A stretch of DNA of 62,560 nt. It comes from Patescibacteria group bacterium (GTDB taxonomy: Bacteria > Patescibacteriota > Patescibacteriia > JAHIZJ01). The translations under genes were made by a program, and so were the position numbers. The stretch is taken from positions 1-62,560 of the forward strand of contig JAHIZJ010000085.1 of the NCBI GenBank assembly GCA_018814765.1. The letters are read 5' to 3'. The notes below the pieces were generated by a model. It did not search any database. It was not told where the DNA came from and saw nothing but the letters and a program-made list of their open reading frames with translations. Shown here piece by piece: positions 12,962-34,381 of the stretch; within the stretch, counting starts at the first letter, position 1; every line of letters starts with the position of its first letter.

Positions 12962-13666
12962 ATGACTATAACAGAGAGAGAAAAAGCATTATTACTAGCG
13001 ATTATCAATGAACATATAAAAACGTCCCGACCGGTCGGGTCAAATGTTATTGTGGAAAAGCACTTAAAAGGTGTTAGTTCAGCCACGGTCAGAAATGAAA
13101 TGGTCAAACTGGAAGTATTGGGCATGATTGAACAGCCTCACACCTCAGCCGGACGCATACCCACCACTAGGGCTTATCAATACTATGTCGACAAGTTTCT
13201 CAATAAAAGGGGATTACCTAAGATTGAACAAAGTAAGCTGACTAGGGTTAATCAAAAACACAAAGGAGACAACAACTCATTGATTCGAGAGATAGCCAAA
13301 GAGGTTGCTGACATGTCTTCAGGCGCTGTTATTGTGGGATTTGCACCTAGAGACTTGTATTATACGGGCATTTCCAATCTTTTTCGTCAGCCCGAGTTTG
13401 AGACTATTGACTTGGTACACAATTTTTCAGAGATCATAGATCATCTGGATGATGTGATGGAGGAACTATTTCCCAAAATTGGCTCTGATATCGAGATAAT
13501 GGTGGGTAGTAATAACCCCTTTGGAGTGAATTGTGGAGCCTTAGTGACAAAGTATGATCTAGGTGGATCCCGCTGTGGGACATTTGGGATACTGGGCCCT
13601 GTACGCATGCCTTATGAAAGAAATCGCGCTTTACTTGAATATGCTCGTCAATTAATAAGTAAATAA
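12962..13666 (+). CDS. hrcA: Heat-inducible transcription repressor HrcA (short form, 234 aa)
   Basis: N-terminal wHTH (VGSNVIVEKH..VSSATVRNEMVKLEVLGMIEQPHTSAGRIPT), a CIRCE element upstream and grpE downstream. Confidence 0.85.
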   Translation: MTITEREKALLLAIINEHIKTSRPVGSNVIVEKHLKGVSSATVRNEMVKLEVLGMIEQPHTSAGRIPTTRAYQYYVDKFLNKRGLPKIEQSKLTRVNQKHKGDNNSLIREIAKEVADMSSGAVIVGFAPRDLYYTGISNLFRQPEFETIDLVHNFSEIIDHLDDVMEELFPKIGSDIEIMVGSNNPFGVNCGALVTKYDLGGSRCGTFGILGPVRMPYERNRALLEYARQLISK

Positions 13667-14764: not shown

Positions 14765-16657
14765 ATGTCGAAGATTTTAGGAATTGACTTAGGTACGACT
14801 AACTCCGCCATGGCGGTAATCGAGGGGGGAAAGCCTAAAGTATTAGAAAACAAGGAAGGAGCTAGAACCACTCCCTCAGTGGTAGCAATTTCCAAGAATG
14901 GTGAACGACTGGTTGGCACTACAGCCAAGAGGCAAGCCGTTACTAATCCCGAGAATACAATATTCTCTATCAAACGATTGATAGGCCGTCGTCATGAAGA
15001 TGAACAGGTTCAGGATGATACAAAAACCCTACCCTATAAAATAAAAAAGTCAGGTGAGGGTATAGCGGTAGCAATGAATGATAAAGACCACACGCCACAG
15101 GAGATTTCAGCTATGATTTTACAGAAGCTAAAGGCCGATGCAGAAGAAAAGCTTGGTGAGACAATCACAGACGCGGTTATAACAGTTCCAGCATACTTTG
15201 ATGATTCTCAACGACAGGCTACTAAGGATGCAGGTAAAATTGCCGGTTTAAACGTTATGCGAATTATCAATGAACCAACGGCCGCTGCTTTAGCCTATGG
15301 GTTTGAAAAGAAAAAGGGTGAACAGATCGCCGTTTATGATTTAGGAGGTGGTACGTTTGATATATCGATTTTAGATGTATCGGCTGACACTGTTGAAGTT
15401 AAATCAACCAATGGCGACACTCATTTGGGCGGTGATGATTTTGATAAAAAGATTATTGATTGGATTATTGAAGAGTACAAAAAAGACCAAGGGGTTGATC
15501 TATCAAATGATGTTCTAGCACTGCAACGACTGAAGGAAGCTGCGGAAAAGGCAAAAATTGAACTATCAACCTCTTCAGAGACTGAAATTAACCAACCGTT
15601 TATTACTCAAGACTCATCTGGGCCGAAGCACTTGGTTCTCAAGATGACTCGGGCAAAGCTGGAGGAGCTGGTTGGTGATTTGGTTGAAGCTACGTTGGAG
15701 CCGGTTAAAAAAGCGCTAGATGACGCCAAACTAAAAACAGAAGATATCGAAGAGGTTATATTGGTTGGCGGACAAACACGTATGCCTTTGGTTCAGGCAA
15801 CTGTGGAAAAATTCTTTGGGAAGAGGCCCCACTTAGGTGTTAATCCTGATGAAGTAGTGGCAATTGGTGCTGCTGTCCAAGCTGGAGTGCTTCAAGGCGA
15901 TGTAAAAGATGTCCTCTTGCTGGATGTAACGCCATTGACATTTGGTCTGGAAACATTGGGCGGTGTTCGTACTCCATTGATTGATCGTAATACAACAATC
16001 CCAACCTCAAAAAGCCAGGTGTTCTCAACCGCAGCCGATAATCAGTCAACAGTAGAAATACACGTTCTTCAGGGGGAGAGAGACATGGCTCAGGACAATA
16101 AAACTCTGGGTCGATTTATCCTTGATGGGATTCCACCGGCTCCTAGGGGGGTTCCACAGGTTGAGGTTACGTTTGATATAGATGCCAACGGTATTCTCAA
16201 GGTCACAGCCAAAGATAAGGCTACTAACAAATCTCAACATATAACAATCCAAGCTTCAACGGGTCTATCCAAAGACGAAGTAGAGAAAATGAAGAAAGAC
16301 GCTGAGGCCCATGCGGGAGAGGATAAAAAGAAGAAAGAACTAATCGAAGCTCGAAATATGGCTGACACTTTAGTTTACACTGCCGAGAAAGCTGTACGTG
16401 AAGCTAAAGATAAAGTAAAAGATGATGACAAAAAAGACATTGAATCCAAGATAGAAGCCCTTAAAAAGGTTAAAGACAATGATGACTTAGAAGCCATCAA
16501 GAAAGCCACCGAAGAACTAAGCCAAGCGGCTCAAAAAATAGGTCAGGCAATGTATGGTCAGCCGGGACAGCCAGGACAACAGACACCGCCTCCAGGATCC
16601 GCCACGGGCGGAAAAGACGAAGGTCCGGTTGAAGGCGAAGTAGAGGATAGTAAATAA
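14765..16657 (+). CDS. dnaK: Chaperone DnaK (Hsp70)
   Basis: [18 protein letters not shown] and [11 protein letters not shown] signatures; 630 aa. Confidence 0.98.
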
Positions 16658-16701
16658 TTGGTTAATTGGATGATTAGTTGATTTGTTGACTGGAGAGATT
16701 G

Positions 16702-16912
16702 AAAAAAGGCCCGGTCAGACAAGGTCCAACCGGGCTAGCGAAACGGAGAATCAGGGATCACAGCAAGGTCGATAGGATCAATAGCTACGTAGAGCCGTGG
16801 CGTACTCCAACGAAGAAACGTTAGCTGGGGACCGAACGAGTCTTCGCGGTAACTAGTGACCCAGCAGCTAGCCTATCTGGTCACCCCATTCCTCCTTGTC
16901 CTGAGGAAGGAC
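16702..16912 (-). ncRNA. Candidate sRNA, array unit 1 (about 210 nt)
   Basis: Minus-strand promoter TTTACA (16947-16942), N17, TATTAT (16924-16919). The terminator has a 12-bp stem (16709-16735) with G:U pairs only in the minus-strand reading, followed by U6. 5' GGAGGAAUGGGG is imperfectly complementary to 3' CCCUGAUUCUCC. Confidence 0.7.
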
Positions 16913-16953
16913 AAGTATATAATAGTTGAATATAATAACTGTGTAAAGTGAAT

Positions 16954-17181
16954 AAAAAAAGAACCCCCCCACCCATGATACATGAATGCATATGGGTGAG
17001 GGGCGAGTGCGGAGAAACGGGAAGCTGATGAACAGATGCAGAGCCGATGGCTATTAAAGAGCGCCTAAGACGCCCCAACCCCAGGAAACTCCGATCCCCC
17101 TTTTTATCTTTGTTCCCCAGTAATAGCTAAAGCTCTGCAAAGCCCATAGCTCCAGTCTCTCCAGCGGGGCGACAGAACGTC
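16954..17181 (-). ncRNA. Candidate sRNA, array unit 2 (about 228 nt)
   Basis: Promoter TTGACA (17216-17211), N17, TATTAT (17193-17188). Terminator stem CCCCUCACCCAU/AUGGGUGGGGGGG followed by UUCUUUUUUU. 5' GC(U)GGAGAGAC pairs with 3' GUUUCUCCGC. Confidence 0.7.
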
Positions 17182-17222
17182 CTAAATATAATAAAATATT
17201 AGATATTATTTGTCAAATTAAT

Positions 17223-17454
17223 AAAAAAAGAACCTGGCCAGACAAATGCCTAACCGGGCTAGCGGAGGAATAGAGGTCCCGGCGTACCGACAAAAAGTGA
17301 CAGGAACGCTGAAGTAATCTCGTGCCACAAGCCCTTGCGTTATCCCCGAGGAGTCTGCCGGAGCAGTTGGGGAAAAGGAAGGATTCGCGACCAACAGCAT
17401 CCGCAGTCATAGTCGGTCGCTATTCTAGATTCCTCCAGTATACGGGTGGTATGC
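17223..17454 (-). ncRNA. Candidate sRNA, array unit 3 (about 232 nt)
   Basis: Promoter TTTACA (17489-17484), N17, TGATAT (17466-17461). The terminator hairpin is homologous to those of units 1 and 5 (one mismatch) and is followed by U7. 5' GGAGGAAU (17436-17429) is exactly complementary to 3' AUUCCUCC (17271-17264). Confidence 0.65.
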
Positions 17455-17495
17455 ATCCACATATCAAACGATAATAGATATTTTGTAAAGAGAGA

Positions 17496-17687
17496 TAAAA
17501 TCCCGGTAGAACTGTTGTCCTACCGGGTCGGAGAAACAGGCATGGGTAAACTGAAACTACTGGCATGAATGGGGCCCCATCACTAGATAGACGGATTAGT
17601 ACCTTTGCAGGCCGGGAAGCCCATCTACACGAGTAACGGCATCCATCGTACGTATCAGCTACCGAACTGTTTCTCCTCGAACGTGGT
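17496..17687 (-). ncRNA. Candidate sRNA, array unit 4 (about 192 nt)
   Basis: Promoter TTTACA (17722-17717), N17, TAAAAT (17699-17694). 8-bp terminator stem CCCGGUAG/CUACCGGG followed by a U-rich tail. 5' GGAGAAACAG (17676-17667) is exactly complementary to 3' CUGUUUCUCC (17539-17530). Confidence 0.7.
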
Positions 17688-17744
17688 ATGTACATTTTAT
17701 ATAAATAACGCTATTTTGTAAAGTTGCAGGATGGTTCAGGATAG

Positions 17745-17954
17745 AAAAAGGCCCGGCCAGACAGAGTCTAACCGAGCCGAAGTGGAGAAACGGGAGTCAC
17801 AGAAGGTCATAGAGCTAGGTGTTACGAGGGGTGCCAGGAAACACCCAAGATAGGAAAAAGTCCGCTTGCCAAAGAGCTAATTCCCAATGTAACCACCACG
17901 CTTGACTCATCAGTTATCCTTGTCTCTCCGTGCATCATAGGAGGTTCTATGACA
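17745..17954 (-). ncRNA. Candidate sRNA, array unit 5 (about 210 nt)
   Basis: Promoter TTGACA (17989-17984), N17, TAACAT (17966-17961). 13-bp terminator stem GGCUCGGUUAGAC/GUCUGGCCGGGCC followed by U5. 5' GGAGAGAC is complementary to 3' GUUUCUCC. Confidence 0.7.
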
Positions 17955-18055
17955 AGATTCATGTTACAATTATAGAAGTTGATTGTCAATAATAAAGAAT
18001 TGGCAGGCGAGGATAGTCATAAAAAATGACAGCAGGGAGTGATTTTGGAGCTGTT

Positions 18056-18361
18056 ATGTCAGGTAAAACGTATTATGTTTACATAGTGAGCAATCGGTTA
18101 GTTACGACGCTGTACATTGGTATTACAAATGACTTACTAAGTAGGGTGTATCAGCACAAGACAGGAATGAACAAAGGGTTTAGTAAACGATATAATTTAA
18201 AGTATTTACTCTACTTTGAAGAAACGGATGATGTTGCAACAGCGATTTCTAGGGAGAAGAAGTTAAAGCGCTGGCGTAATAAATGGAAGATAGAGCTAAT
18301 TCAAAAGCAGAACTCGAAGCTCGAAGATTTAGCCAAAGACTGGTATGATGATATTGCATAA
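18056..18361 (+). CDS. Small GIY-YIG (URI-domain, UPF0213-like) nuclease
   Basis: YYVYIVSN..LYIGITNDLLSRVYQHK...REKKLKRW matches the GIY-YIG core. I prefer the start at 18056 (GGAG 5 nt upstream); the ORF track's upstream ATG at 18026 is an alternative. Confidence 0.8.
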   Translation: MSGKTYYVYIVSNRLVTTLYIGITNDLLSRVYQHKTGMNKGFSKRYNLKYLLYFEETDDVATAISREKKLKRWRNKWKIELIQKQNSKLEDLAKDWYDDIA

Positions 18362-18382
18362 GGCGATTAACGTCTCTCTATA

Positions 18383-18463
18383 CTGTCACACCGGACGGCG
18401 ATCCGGTGTCTCCAATTGTATGACCGTGGCTCTTGAGATGCCGGATCAAGTCCGGCATGACAG
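18383..18463. repeat. Inverted hairpin doublet (REPIN-like), copy a
   Basis: CTGTCA-CACCGGA-cggcg-ATCCGGTG-TCTCC, a 25-nt spacer, then GAGA-TGCCGGA-tcaag-TCCGGCA-TGACAG. The two 8-bp hairpins are flanked by mutually inverted GTCA..TCTC / GAGA..TGAC motifs. Confidence 0.75.
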
Positions 18464-18675
18464 TTTTGGGGGGGCTGGTTGGAGGGGAAGTGGAGGATGA
18501 TATCTCTCCATTCACCCCCTGCCCTTTTACGAAAGAGTGGGGGTTCAGTCGAGAAATAATTAAGATATTCCTCGACCTTGTGTAGAGGGGTATAATAAAA
18601 AGTGCTAATTAGATATCTAAAAACATTGGCGGATAAGTGCTTGTCCGCCTGAGTAGCAGTGAACCTCCACCCAAA

Positions 18676-18753
18676 TTGTCACCCTGAATTTATTTCAGGG
18701 TCTCCAAAGCTAAAGTGGTTAATGGAGATGCCGAACTAAATTCGGCATGACAG
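18676..18753. repeat. Inverted hairpin doublet (REPIN-like), copy b
   Basis: TTGTCA-CCCTGAA-tttat-TTCAGGG-TCTCC, a 19-nt spacer, then GAGA-TGCCGAA-ctaaa-TTCGGCA-TGACAG. Same architecture as copy a, with compensatory changes in the stem sequence. Confidence 0.75.
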
Positions 18754-18803
18754 CTTGGGTAGAAAGATAATTAAGCTAATAAATAATAAATGAACAAAAC
18801 ACC

Positions 18804-18968
18804 ATGAATAGTAAATTACAATGTCCAAATTGTGAGAAGAATACCAGTGGTAAGAATTATAACCACGGTAAGCATGAAATTATTTGTGAACACTGTTTAT
18901 TCTCTATTCCAGTAAGAGAAAGAAGTCTAGGTGATGGCAAAGGTGGGGTGATTGAGATTAATTCATAA
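18804..18968 (+). CDS. Small zinc-ribbon protein (54 aa; below the ORF-track cutoff)
   Basis: My own translation is MNSKLQCPNCEKNTSGKNYNHGKHEIICEHCLFSIPVRERSLGDGKGGVIEINS, with two CxxC pairs. Its TAA stop overlaps the next ATG (TAATG). No clear SD. Confidence 0.4.
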   Translation: MNSKLQCPNCEKNTSGKNYNHGKHEIICEHCLFSIPVRERSLGDGKGGVIEINS

Positions 18969-19531
18969 TGATGGATAACCAAAATTGGTATTATGCATTA
19001 AGTGCAATAGCTCAAACTAGCGGAGCGTTATTGGCTCTAGGTGGTGCTTTCATAATATTTAAATTGGACAAAGCATACACAGCGATTCTTAATTACAAAG
19101 ACAGATTAATTAAGATTATTATCCTACCTCATTTTCATGATAGAGAAATAAACTATCTTACTATTCCAAATATAGATATTTATGACAAGGTAAACAATAA
19201 TAAAGTATCTATGTCAGAGAATCCTGTAGTCCATTCTTCGATTACACGGTTTGATAACATGAGTTGTAGCACCAGTCAGCAAGCATTGTATTGGATAGAT
19301 AAACATTTATACTGTTTAGATATAAACATAGATGCGGAAGTGCAAATAAAACGATATTTTAAAATAGTGTTTATTATATTATCTATTATATTTTCAAGTA
19401 ATTTATTTTTTCTAGCTTTTGAGAGATTACCACATTATCTTTATTTAGCCCTTATTATTTTTTCGGTAGCTTTCATGGTTTATAATTCAATAATATTTTG
19501 GAGAATATTAAATATTAAATATTTTACCTAA
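18968..19531 (+). CDS. AT-rich hypothetical membrane protein (3 TM)
   Basis: One TM near the N-terminus and two at the C-terminus. Very low GC. No family recognised. Confidence 0.55.
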   Translation: MMDNQNWYYALSAIAQTSGALLALGGAFIIFKLDKAYTAILNYKDRLIKIIILPHFHDREINYLTIPNIDIYDKVNNNKVSMSENPVVHSSITRFDNMSCSTSQQALYWIDKHLYCLDINIDAEVQIKRYFKIVFIILSIIFSSNLFFLAFERLPHYLYLALIIFSVAFMVYNSIIFWRILNIKYFT

Positions 19532-19535
19532 TTTT

Positions 19536-33776: not shown

Positions 33777-34000
33777 TTCGGGATCGTCTAATGGTAGCGC
33801 GCCTCATCGGCGCGTCCGCCGAGAAGGCGGAGACCCATAAATAGTTTATCAGTTCATATTCTTAGGTTAAATGGTTCATGTTTACAGCTGCGGGATCGTC
33901 TAATGGTAGCGCGCCTCATCGGCGCGTCCGCCGAGAAGGCGGAGACCCATAAATAGTTTATCAGTTCATATTCTTAGGTTAAATGGTTCATGTTTACAGC
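33777..34000 (+). repeat. Two perfect 112-nt tandem units, each starting with the 5' 21 nt of tRNA-Gln followed by two GC-rich hairpins
   Basis: Units at 33777-33888 and 33889-34000 are identical from 33779 onward. Each reads (T)GCGGGATCGTCTAATGGTAG, then CGCGCC-tcatc-GGCGCG, then TCCGCC-gagaa-GGCGGA, then an AT-rich tail. The third iteration is the intact tRNA. Confidence 0.9.
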
Positions 34001-34071
34001 TGCGGGATCGTCTAATGGTAGGACGCCTGACTCTGAATCAGGTAATCCAGGTTCGAGCCCTGGTCCCGCAG
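34001..34071 (+). tRNA. tRNA-Gln (anticodon CTG)
   Basis: Hand-folded cloverleaf. Acceptor TGCGGGA/TCCCGCA (U1:A72 as in bacterial tRNA-Gln), D stem GTCT/GGAC, anticodon stem CCTGA/TCAGG with loop CTCTGAA (anticodon 34033-34035), T arm CCAGG-TTCGAGC-CCTGG. No encoded CCA. Confidence 0.9.
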
Positions 34072-34120
34072 CTGTTGACGGGAACATAAAGTATGGCAAG
34101 GGAGATAAAAGGGTGAAAAT

Positions 34121-34381
34121 ATGTGGTGGTATGTATACGTACTATTTAATCCAAAGACAAAAAAGAAATATATTGGTTATACCAATAACATTAATAGGCG
34201 CGTAAAGGAACATTATCAAGGGAGAGGGGGAAAGTATACCAGTAAGTTTGGACACTTTAAGCTTGTCTATTATGAGACATATCGTGATGAAAAGGATGCT
34301 CGAGCTTCAGAGCATTTTTATAAATCAGGATATGGAAGAGAAGTTCTTGTGGGTAAGTTGAGGCATTTTCTCAATCAATAA
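34121..34381 (+). CDS. Small GIY-YIG (URI-domain) nuclease, second copy
   Basis: WYVYVLFNPKTKKKYIGYTNNINRRVKEH...YYETYRDEKDARASE matches the GIY-YIG core. Starts 50 nt after tRNA-Gln. Confidence 0.8.
   Translation: MWWYVYVLFNPKTKKKYIGYTNNINRRVKEHYQGRGGKYTSKFGHFKLVYYETYRDEKDARASEHFYKSGYGREVLVGKLRHFLNQ

Follow-up and report, generated by a model that had tools for sequence, protein, structure and literature searches.

Five predicted structured RNA genes arranged head to tail downstream of dnaK in an uncultured Patescibacteria bacterium

What is encoded in the 1.3-kb block that separates dnaK from a small GIY-YIG nuclease gene in an uncultured Patescibacteria (candidate phyla radiation, CPR) bacterium? 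The stretch of DNA analyzed here (the window, 62.5 kb) comes from a metagenome-assembled genome (MAG), and its genes, assigned with NCBIfam and Pfam, follow the order hrcA, grpE, hsp20, dnaK, the array described below, the GIY-YIG gene, a hairpin-rich spacer, a 54-aa zinc-ribbon open reading frame (ORF), a 187-aa membrane protein gene, a DUF3467 gene, a gene for a 375-aa protein, and dnaJ. On the minus strand of positions 16702-17989, convergent with dnaK, we found five co-oriented, head-to-tail units (U1 to U5; Table 1), each of which comprises (i) a sigma-70-type promoter with a 17-nt spacer; (ii) a GC-rich core; (iii) a helix that closes this core; and (iv) an intrinsic terminator. As judged from these signals, each unit very probably makes a folded non-coding RNA of ~190-235 nt from its own promoter and terminator. 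We further consider it probable, with reservations given below, that the array is a lineage-specific cluster of five sibling structured non-coding small RNA (sRNA) genes under selection for RNA structure. By its predicted architecture the array is of a known kind, i.e., tandem sibling sRNA genes, and neither Rfam 15 nor any other collection that we searched yielded a match.

The initial annotation of this region had proposed five minus-strand promoters with 17-nt spacers and an intrinsic terminator at the end of each unit, and both proposals held. A consensus scan called four of the promoters, all on the minus strand, with 10-11 of 12 matches and 17-nt spacers; that of U3 is present in the sequence but was not called, and it is the weakest because its -10 box has no A at position 2. 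Altogether, the same scan counted 14 promoter-like sites in the region, compared with 4.2 ± 2.1 in shuffled sequences. Two plus-strand promoter-like sites (16896-16936 and 17169-17197) fall within the AT-rich promoter regions and are not accompanied by a plus-strand terminator. The terminators of U1, U3, U4, and U5 make up four of the five terminator-like sites in 16000-18800, and U2 ends in the long GC hairpin of its predicted fold. As had been claimed, the terminator stems of U1, U3, and U5 are homologous to one another (z 8.5-12.7) and contain G:U pairs. When the entire window was scanned for promoters of at least 10/12 with a terminator 60-330 nt away, strong promoter-to-terminator pairs were found only in the array. 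The units are not located in 5' untranslated regions (UTRs), as each is followed by the promoter of the next unit or by the 3' end of dnaK.

The array is not a product of assembly. The DnaK protein of the window is 100% identical on NCBI MAG GCA_018824475.1 and in two Logan assemblies, the array with its flanks (16601-18400) is 100% identical to the window in all three, and the 9-14 kb shared with them are 99.99-100% identical as a whole; three independent assemblies thus carry the identical array, which rules out an artefact. The GC content of the cores (0.48-0.55) exceeds that across the window (~0.39), and this rise is limited to the cores. Tandem Repeats Finder did not detect the array because its units are too divergent.

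The start of the U1 transcript was placed from its -10 box, and the predicted transcripts of the five units were folded by minimum free energy (MFE). All five units were more stable than shuffled sequences (z -2.8 to -5.5), their minus strand was more stable than their plus strand by 6-31 kcal/mol in five of five cases, and the closed cores deprived of their terminators still reached z -1.95 to -4.8. The pairing that had been proposed between a 5'-proximal GGAG(R)A and a segment just ahead of the terminator was recovered in the MFE fold of every unit, as a closing helix of 6-10 bp (GGAGRR/YYCUCC) around a rod-like core and followed by the terminator. A search pattern of promoter, GGAGRRA, and TYCTCC matched four units and none of 100 shuffles. 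A 5' hairpin ahead of the closing helix is clear in U1, U3, and U5, amounts to 3 bp in U2, and is absent from U4, and in U1, U2, and U5 the long imperfect rod is predicted to end in a three-way junction with two hairpins. More specifically, U1 folds into a 5' hairpin (CUUGUCC/GGACAAG), a closed rod with the three-way junction, and the terminator; the CUUGUC..GACAAG hairpin and the UGUGAYYCC segment, both of which had been pointed out as common to U1 and U5, are present in the two units.

Table 1. Features of the array and its surroundings in the window (MFE, minimum free energy; R1, covariance model built from U1 and U5)
Feature	Position	Strand	Description	Basis
U1 terminator	16702..16735	-	12-bp stem 16735-16709, then U6	Terminator scan
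U1 predicted transcript	16702..16912	-	~211 nt; MFE -82.9 kcal/mol, z -3.7; plus strand z -1.5	Fold; R1 216.6 bits
U1 closing helix, 3' strand	16745..16750	-	UUCUCC	MFE fold
U1 closing helix, 5' strand	16890..16895	-	GGAGGA	MFE fold
U1 promoter	16919..16947	-	-35 TTTACA (16947-16942), 17-nt spacer, -10 TATTAT (16924-16919)	Consensus scan
U2 terminator	16953..17003	-	Long GC hairpin 17003-16965 (17 bp), then U7; non-homologous to the other terminators	MFE fold
U2 predicted transcript	16953..17181	-	~229 nt; MFE -100.4 kcal/mol, z -5.5	Fold
U2 closing helix, 3' strand	17011..17018	-	GUUUCUCC	MFE fold
U2 closing helix, 5' strand	17155..17162	-	GGAGAGAC	MFE fold
U2 promoter	17188..17216	-	TTGACA-17-TATTAT, 11/12	Consensus scan
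U3 terminator	17222..17259	-	Homologous to U1 and U5 terminators, then U7	Terminator scan, comparison
U3 predicted transcript	17222..17455	-	~234 nt; MFE -82.0 kcal/mol, z -2.8	Fold
U3 closing helix, 3' strand	17264..17271	-	AUUCCUCC	MFE fold, complementarity
U3 closing helix, 5' strand	17429..17436	-	GGAGGAAU	MFE fold, complementarity
U3 promoter	17461..17489	-	TTTACA-17-TGATAT, weak -10	Present in sequence; not called by consensus scan
U4 terminator	17495..17527	-	11-bp stem 17527-17502, weaker tract AUUUUAU	Terminator scan
U4 predicted transcript	17495..17687	-	~193 nt; MFE -75.8 kcal/mol, z -5.1	Fold
U4 closing helix, 3' strand	17530..17539	-	CUGUUUCUCC	10/10 complementary
U4 closing helix, 5' strand	17667..17676	-	GGAGAAACAG	10/10 complementary
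U4 promoter	17694..17722	-	TTTACA-17-TAAAAT	Consensus scan
U5 terminator	17742..17778	-	13-bp stem 17778-17750, then U5 tract	Terminator scan
U5 predicted transcript	17742..17954	-	~213 nt, full-length U1 homologue (~70% core identity); MFE -80.7 kcal/mol, z -4.4	Fold
U5 closing helix, 3' strand	17784..17791	-	GUUUCUCC	MFE fold
U5 closing helix, 5' strand	17922..17929	-	GGAGAGAC	MFE fold
U5 promoter	17961..17989	-	TTGACA-17-TAACAT	Consensus scan
dnaK	14765-16657	+		NCBIfam/Pfam
Lineage-specific insertion	16658..19535		~2.9 kb, dnaK to DUF3467 gene	Closest relatives: 130-335 nt here, without units
Small GIY-YIG nuclease gene	18026/18056-18361	+		NCBIfam/Pfam
54-aa ORF	18804-18968		CxxC...CxxC zinc ribbon	Marginal PHROGs match only (scanned against PADLOC, PHROGs)
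187-aa protein	18968-19531		Hydrophobic N- and C-terminal segments	Stop/start overlap with 54-aa ORF

How closely the units are related depends on which part is compared. For the 3' frames (i.e., the CUCC segment and the terminator) of U1, U3, U4, and U5, homology is clear (z 4.6-12.7), and the 5' frames show moderate similarity, whereas the cores could be aligned only for U1 and U5 (z 5.7, ~70% identity) and, marginally, for U2 and U3 (z 2.4). The five units have no k-mer of at least 5 nt in common; GGAG and CUCC are the sole motifs kept throughout. The 3' frame of U3 shares ~80% identity with the U1 and U5 frames while its core is unrelated to theirs, which indicates mosaic evolution by homogenization of frames or replacement of cores. 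A covariance model built from U1 and U5 only (R1) nevertheless recovered the three remaining units: U3 at E 8.7e-5, with the match limited to the closing helix and terminator; U2 at E 1e-3, matched along its entire length and sharing the three-way-junction architecture; and U4 at E 0.039, over the 3' frame. The units had been described as paralogous, a description that stands for their frames (promoter, closing helix, and terminator), for U1 and U5 as wholes and, by covariance model, for U2, but not for the cores of U3 and U4, which have no detectable sequence similarity to the others.

Compensatory changes, also part of the initial annotation, were found at both levels of comparison. Of 43 predicted pairs that U1 and U5 have in common, 9 were changed on both sides, compared with 0-1 in slid controls. 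In a model-fitted alignment of the five units, which also took in one weak plus-strand match as a spurious row, 97.7% of the cells were paired and double changes occurred in 24 of the 43 pairs, compared with 3-6 in slid controls, a result that none of 500 shuffles reached. The closing helix itself shows such changes. Pairing has thus been kept by compensatory changes despite the divergence of the cores, which implies selection on RNA structure.

The conservation of GGAG and CUCC had led the initial annotation to another idea, namely that a masked anti-Shine-Dalgarno (anti-SD) motif marks the RNAs as translational regulators or protein sponges. In its explicit form, the units would be sibling base-pairing sRNAs, the UUYCUCC segment of which pairs with the SD sites of mRNAs and represses translation, with GGAG acting as a mask that is opened under certain conditions. 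This reading would explain why the two motifs alone recur in all five units, and U5 offers an alternative 5' pairing (AUCUUGUC with GACAAGGAU) that could compete with the closing helix; moreover, the seeds of known sibling sRNAs (csRNAs, LhrC, and RoxS) are C-rich or of the anti-SD type. However, the helix, which has compensatory changes of its own, accounts for the conservation of both motifs equally well. We consider the anti-SD reading quite unlikely, because CUCC forms the 3' strand of the 6-10-bp closing helix in every MFE fold, the units share no exposed seed, and a search for complementarity between the units and the rest of the window found none longer than 13 nt and no extended match to its genes. 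Given that no single-stranded seed is shared and CUCC is buried in a helix, we tentatively take structured protein-binding or decoy RNAs, or individually specialized RNAs on a shared frame for expression and stability, to be likelier than redundant anti-SD repressors.

In line with the initial annotation, we detected no credible ORF in the array and no peptide common to its units, and its longest spurious ORFs had no Pfam match. U1 has no minus-strand ORF of at least 12 codons, U5 holds a 31-codon ORF with AAGGA 6 nt upstream, and the remaining candidates have 6-28 codons or extend into or past the terminator (a 65-codon ORF in U3 reads through it). These data bear on whether the units are mRNAs of type I toxin-like or other small proteins, in which GGAG would be a real SD sequestered by 5'-3' pairing and several copies would now be pseudogenes. 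The hok and Helicobacter pylori aapA1 mRNAs are, like the units, ~200 nt long and often tandem, and their SD-like 5' element pairs with an anti-SD just ahead of the terminator; the predicted closing helices would sequester GGAG in the same 5'-3' manner; the U5 ORF, too, is compatible with such mRNAs. Unlike in such systems, no antitoxin is evident. Moreover, the U5 peptide is not hydrophobic (grand average of hydropathy -0.04), U1 has ATA where the U5 ORF has its start codon, and U1 and U5 differ by compensatory rather than codon-like changes. The toxin reading fails because there is no conserved or hydrophobic ORF, and we regard it as extremely improbable.

No known RNA family had been recognized in the region, and our searches agree. 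Rfam 15 gave no match there at the gathering threshold and only noise at E<10 (10-19 bits, against thresholds of 39-76), and ARAGORN called no tRNA or tmRNA in the array. The Rfam models so covered include 6S, Y RNA, SRP, RNase P, tmRNA, riboswitches, T-box, ribozymes, introns, OLE, raiA, HEARO, DUF3800-I to XI, drum, and skipping-rope. Likewise, no homologue was found by nhmmer with unit profiles in the window, 80 GTDB Patescibacteria dnaK loci, 9 closest-relative loci, and 80 GIY-YIG metagenome loci; blastn of the units gave no significant match in 2.8 Mb of collected loci, and blastn of the array returned nothing real from phage and plasmid collections. A covariance model from the copies had been suggested as a means of finding relatives: in 1.42 Mb of Patescibacteria DNA, R1 detected nothing beyond the units of the window, and in these plus another 0.39 Mb it added one false positive, a terminator in locus L221, which was also its sole match in the 80 GIY-YIG metagenome loci. 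In the relatives' loci, a scan for a terminator preceded by YYCYCC with a complementary GGRG helix produced one chance-like match without a promoter, and an exact-pattern scan for the 3' frame of U1, U3, and U5 gave 0 matches in JGI metagenomes and 0 in IMG/VR. So far, the array is known from a single Patescibacteria lineage. The pattern of promoter, GGAGRRA, and TYCTCC occurred at no fewer than 120 loci in viral contigs; among the matches listed, those in the two most populous sequence clusters (42 and 16 of 125) derive from repeated conserved regions, and the ones inspected are a gene for a Cro-like protein that has a real SD. As the pattern matches ordinary phage genes, a promoter plus GGAG is not diagnostic by itself. 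Two motif candidates, a hammerhead-like CUGAUGAG in U5 and a tandem-GA/K-turn in U1, were dropped, because other core elements were missing and Rfam gave no match. A literature search on CPR sRNA arrays yielded nothing specific and, to our knowledge, no regulatory or structural RNAs have been described from Patescibacteria/CPR.

The position of the array also sets it apart from the closest relatives. In a collection of 5.8 billion protein clusters, the nearest DnaK proteins are 89, 87, and 85% identical, and the contigs of these relatives run dnaK-DUF3467-375aa-dnaJ, where the gaps behind dnaK measure just 284, 335, and 130 nt and contain small hairpins and no unit. In the window, by comparison, dnaK and the DUF3467 gene are 2,878 nt apart. 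The array, together with the 54-aa ORF and the genes for the GIY-YIG and 187-aa proteins, therefore constitutes a lineage-specific insertion in the operon hrcA-grpE-hsp20-dnaK-(DUF3467)-(375 aa)-dnaJ. Four repetitive extragenic palindromic (REP)-like mini-hairpins belong to it as well, and the 187-aa ORFan matched itself alone among the 5.8 billion cluster representatives, with no Pfam, NCBIfam, PADLOC, or PHROGs match. PADLOC had nothing for any gene of the insertion or its neighborhood; PHROGs matched the GIY-YIG and 54-aa proteins marginally and the DUF3467 protein with one family of unknown function.

Such a setting raises the question of whether the array is functional at all, as it could be a tandemly duplicated promoter-terminator cassette, or the remains of a mobile element that came in together with the GIY-YIG gene, transcribed or not and without a role in the cell. 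Its occurrence in a single lineage, within an insertion that carries a GIY-YIG gene, REP-like hairpins, and an ORFan, fits non-functional or selfish DNA, as do the lack of homologues in the collections searched and the mosaic frames (exemplified by U3), which suggest recombination. Patescibacteria/CPR have genomes of ~1 Mb and an episymbiotic lifestyle, and a genome so reduced would be unlikely to keep 1.3 kb of neutral DNA in such an organized state. Furthermore, five near-consensus promoters and five strong terminators have been retained, the diverged cores maintain strand-specific stability beyond that of shuffles as well as compensatory pair changes, and the raised GC is limited to the cores. 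On balance, we think selfish DNA unlikely.

Two further features of the host operon were observed. An ancestral structured element in the dnaK-DUF3467 spacer is kept in the window (~18490-18600) and in the closest relative (locus L084, 11960-12060); its parts are a GTCGAG..N16..CTCGAC hairpin, another GC hairpin, and a closing pair of the CUCUCC/GGAGAG type, and it may be cis-regulatory for the heat-shock operon. In addition, HrcA has 231-234 aa in this lineage (window 12962-13666; L084 8076-8771; L086 7929-8624; L087 4887-5585), compared with 338 positions in the TIGR00331 profile, and its highest-scoring segment spans no more than the N-terminal ~125 residues of that profile.

In the closest relatives, homologues of the GIY-YIG gene (65-67% identity) occupy a different site, with a His_Phos_1 gene on one side and an EamA gene on the other, and are flanked by REP-like hairpins. 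These hairpins (27-28 nt, GAGAYNCYG-loop-CRGNRTGACA) number 27 copies in 1.43 Mb of Patescibacteria loci, compared with 2 in a shuffle. The four copies in the window, 18385-18412 (-), 18435-18461 (+), 18678-18704 (-), and 18725-18751 (+), all lie just downstream of the GIY-YIG gene. In the relatives, inverted copies stand on both sides of the gene (L088 5811-5837/6317-6343; L090 5808-5834/6316-6342; L092 5958-5984/6287-6313), which suggests a small mobile unit made up of the GIY-YIG gene and its terminal hairpins. Another small GIY-YIG gene of the window (34121-34381, 86 aa) directly follows its only tRNA (34001-34071). Upstream within the same region (33779-34381) are two ~113-nt tandem copies, each beginning with the first ~20 nt of the tRNA (GGGATCGTCTAATGGTAG) and continuing into GC hairpins, which looks like a repeated partial duplication of the tRNA 5' end at an insertion site. 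Metagenome loci, too, have GIY-YIG homologues beside tRNA genes (e.g., L243 5452-5532).

Could the RNAs act together with one of these proteins? Weinberg et al. (2017; PMC5737381) described structurally unrelated RNAs, several of which end in terminators and lie outside 5' UTRs, that are linked to a single protein family. The DUF3800-I to XI, drum, and skipping-rope RNAs, which occur near DUF3800 genes, resemble the array in being structured, terminator-ended, outside 5' UTRs, mutually dissimilar, and without an explained function, and by analogy the units could be RNA partners of an unrecognized protein, i.e., the GIY-YIG nuclease or the ORFans. The U5 promoter lies back to back with a promoter-like site of the GIY-YIG gene (18000-18027, plus strand), and some of the loci analyzed (L060 and L214) do carry RNAs of the DUF3800 type. 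However, no DUF3800, drum, or skipping-rope model matched any unit even at E<10, and neither a DUF3800 nor a TROVE domain was found by Pfam/NCBIfam scans of most window ORFs of at least 100 aa (those outside 23.7-27.2, 32.2-33.7, and 34.5-35.5 kb); membership of the array in the DUF3800-type group is unsupported because of these results. In addition, no such RNAs adjoin the GIY-YIG homologues, either in the relatives or in 80 metagenome loci. We therefore place a protein partner of this kind among the very unlikely readings.

The loci analyzed contained several sRNA-like units that deserve mention on their own account. In a Candidatus Parcubacteria MAG (L060 12658-12950, minus strand), two tandem units that both have a consensus promoter and a terminator lie ~0.7 kb downstream of dnaK and are convergent with a putative RhuM-like gene (read from its translation); the second unit is Rfam DUF3800-V (79 bits), with which the first has the motif CUAAAGCCG in common. 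A metagenome contig (L214) carries DUF3800-IX. Beside a GIY-YIG homologue and upstream of an ORF, L258 5425-5645 (+) holds a ~190-nt promoter-to-terminator non-coding unit that contains GGGUGGAACC (T-box-like) and had no Rfam call at the gathering threshold. Another Patescibacteria dnaK locus (L009 18360-18607, minus strand) has a ~210-nt promoter-to-terminator unit with a GC content of 0.57, which was judged non-coding on inspection (although the scan gave one internal ORF of 53 codons), has no Rfam match at the gathering threshold, and is unrelated in sequence to the array.

Several points weigh against our preferred reading of the array as five sibling structured sRNA genes. Transcription is predicted from sequence signals, and of these the U3 -10 box is poor and the U4 U-tract short; a promoter plus GGAG resembles an ordinary gene start, and the pattern also matches real phage genes. 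The covariation comes from five paralogues of one genome without orthologues, and its better statistics derive from the model-fitted alignment. A recent lineage-specific insertion beside mobile-looking elements (GIY-YIG, REP-like hairpins, and the ORFan) could carry non-functional DNA. Finally, a mechanism based on protein binding or on a stabilizing frame is argued by exclusion.

If the preferred reading is correct, the frame (terminator, promoter, and closing helix) would have been kept or homogenized between units while the cores diverged, those of U3 and U4 beyond recognition. The closing helix, 5' hairpin, and terminator might clamp both ends of each RNA and render it nuclease-resistant and stable, and the divergent structured cores might be the functional payload, be it protein-binding, decoy, or individually specialized; we advance both suggestions tentatively. 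A bolder version, to which we give a very slight chance, would be a modular RNA cassette system, in which a common frame presents distinct payload RNAs of ~130-160 nt that work with an unrecognized partner (e.g., the GIY-YIG nuclease or the ORFan membrane or zinc-ribbon proteins), as a CPR-specific counterpart of the DUF3800/drum/skipping-rope associations. If true, such a system could play a part in conflict with phages or hosts.

Bacteria commonly have orphan sRNAs restricted to one lineage, and the importance of the array is limited insofar as it is so far unique to one uncultured species, has no orthologues that would permit rigorous covariation statistics, and offers no functional lead. 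Nonetheless, a 1.3-kb block of five strongly signaled, structure-constrained RNA genes inserted in a core heat-shock operon is a concrete and testable candidate, and its pattern of conserved frames and divergent cores recalls the unexplained DUF3800-type RNAs.

Among other known RNAs, 6S RNA has a large central bubble that separates a closing stem from a terminal stem, whereas the array folds show no consistent central bubble and no covariance-model match; bacterial Y RNA (Yrl) is encoded next to an rsr (Ro/TROVE) gene and includes a tRNA-like module, whereas the array has no TROVE domain in the ORFs scanned and no tRNA-like match. The ends of Y RNAs and 6S RNA, like those of the array RNAs, meet in a conserved closing stem around a variable interior, and Y RNA genes are, as in the array, clustered paralogues transcribed as separate units. 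With respect to sibling sRNA clusters (i.e., Listeria LhrC1-4, Vibrio Qrr1-5, Streptococcus csRNA1-5, the Nostoc NsiR1 tandem array, and cyanobacterial Yfr2-5), the NsiR1 model gave only a terminator-type match to the array (15.8 bits, threshold 39). The known siblings are 60-150 nt long with a conserved exposed seed, whereas the array RNAs would be closed rods of 190-235 nt with no shared single-stranded motif, hence no shared accessible seed, and with cores ranging from 70% identical to unalignable, unlike in the known clusters. What the array has in common with them is its organization: tandem, adjoining paralogous genes that are non-coding, that each have their own promoter and Rho-independent terminator, and that are restricted to a lineage.

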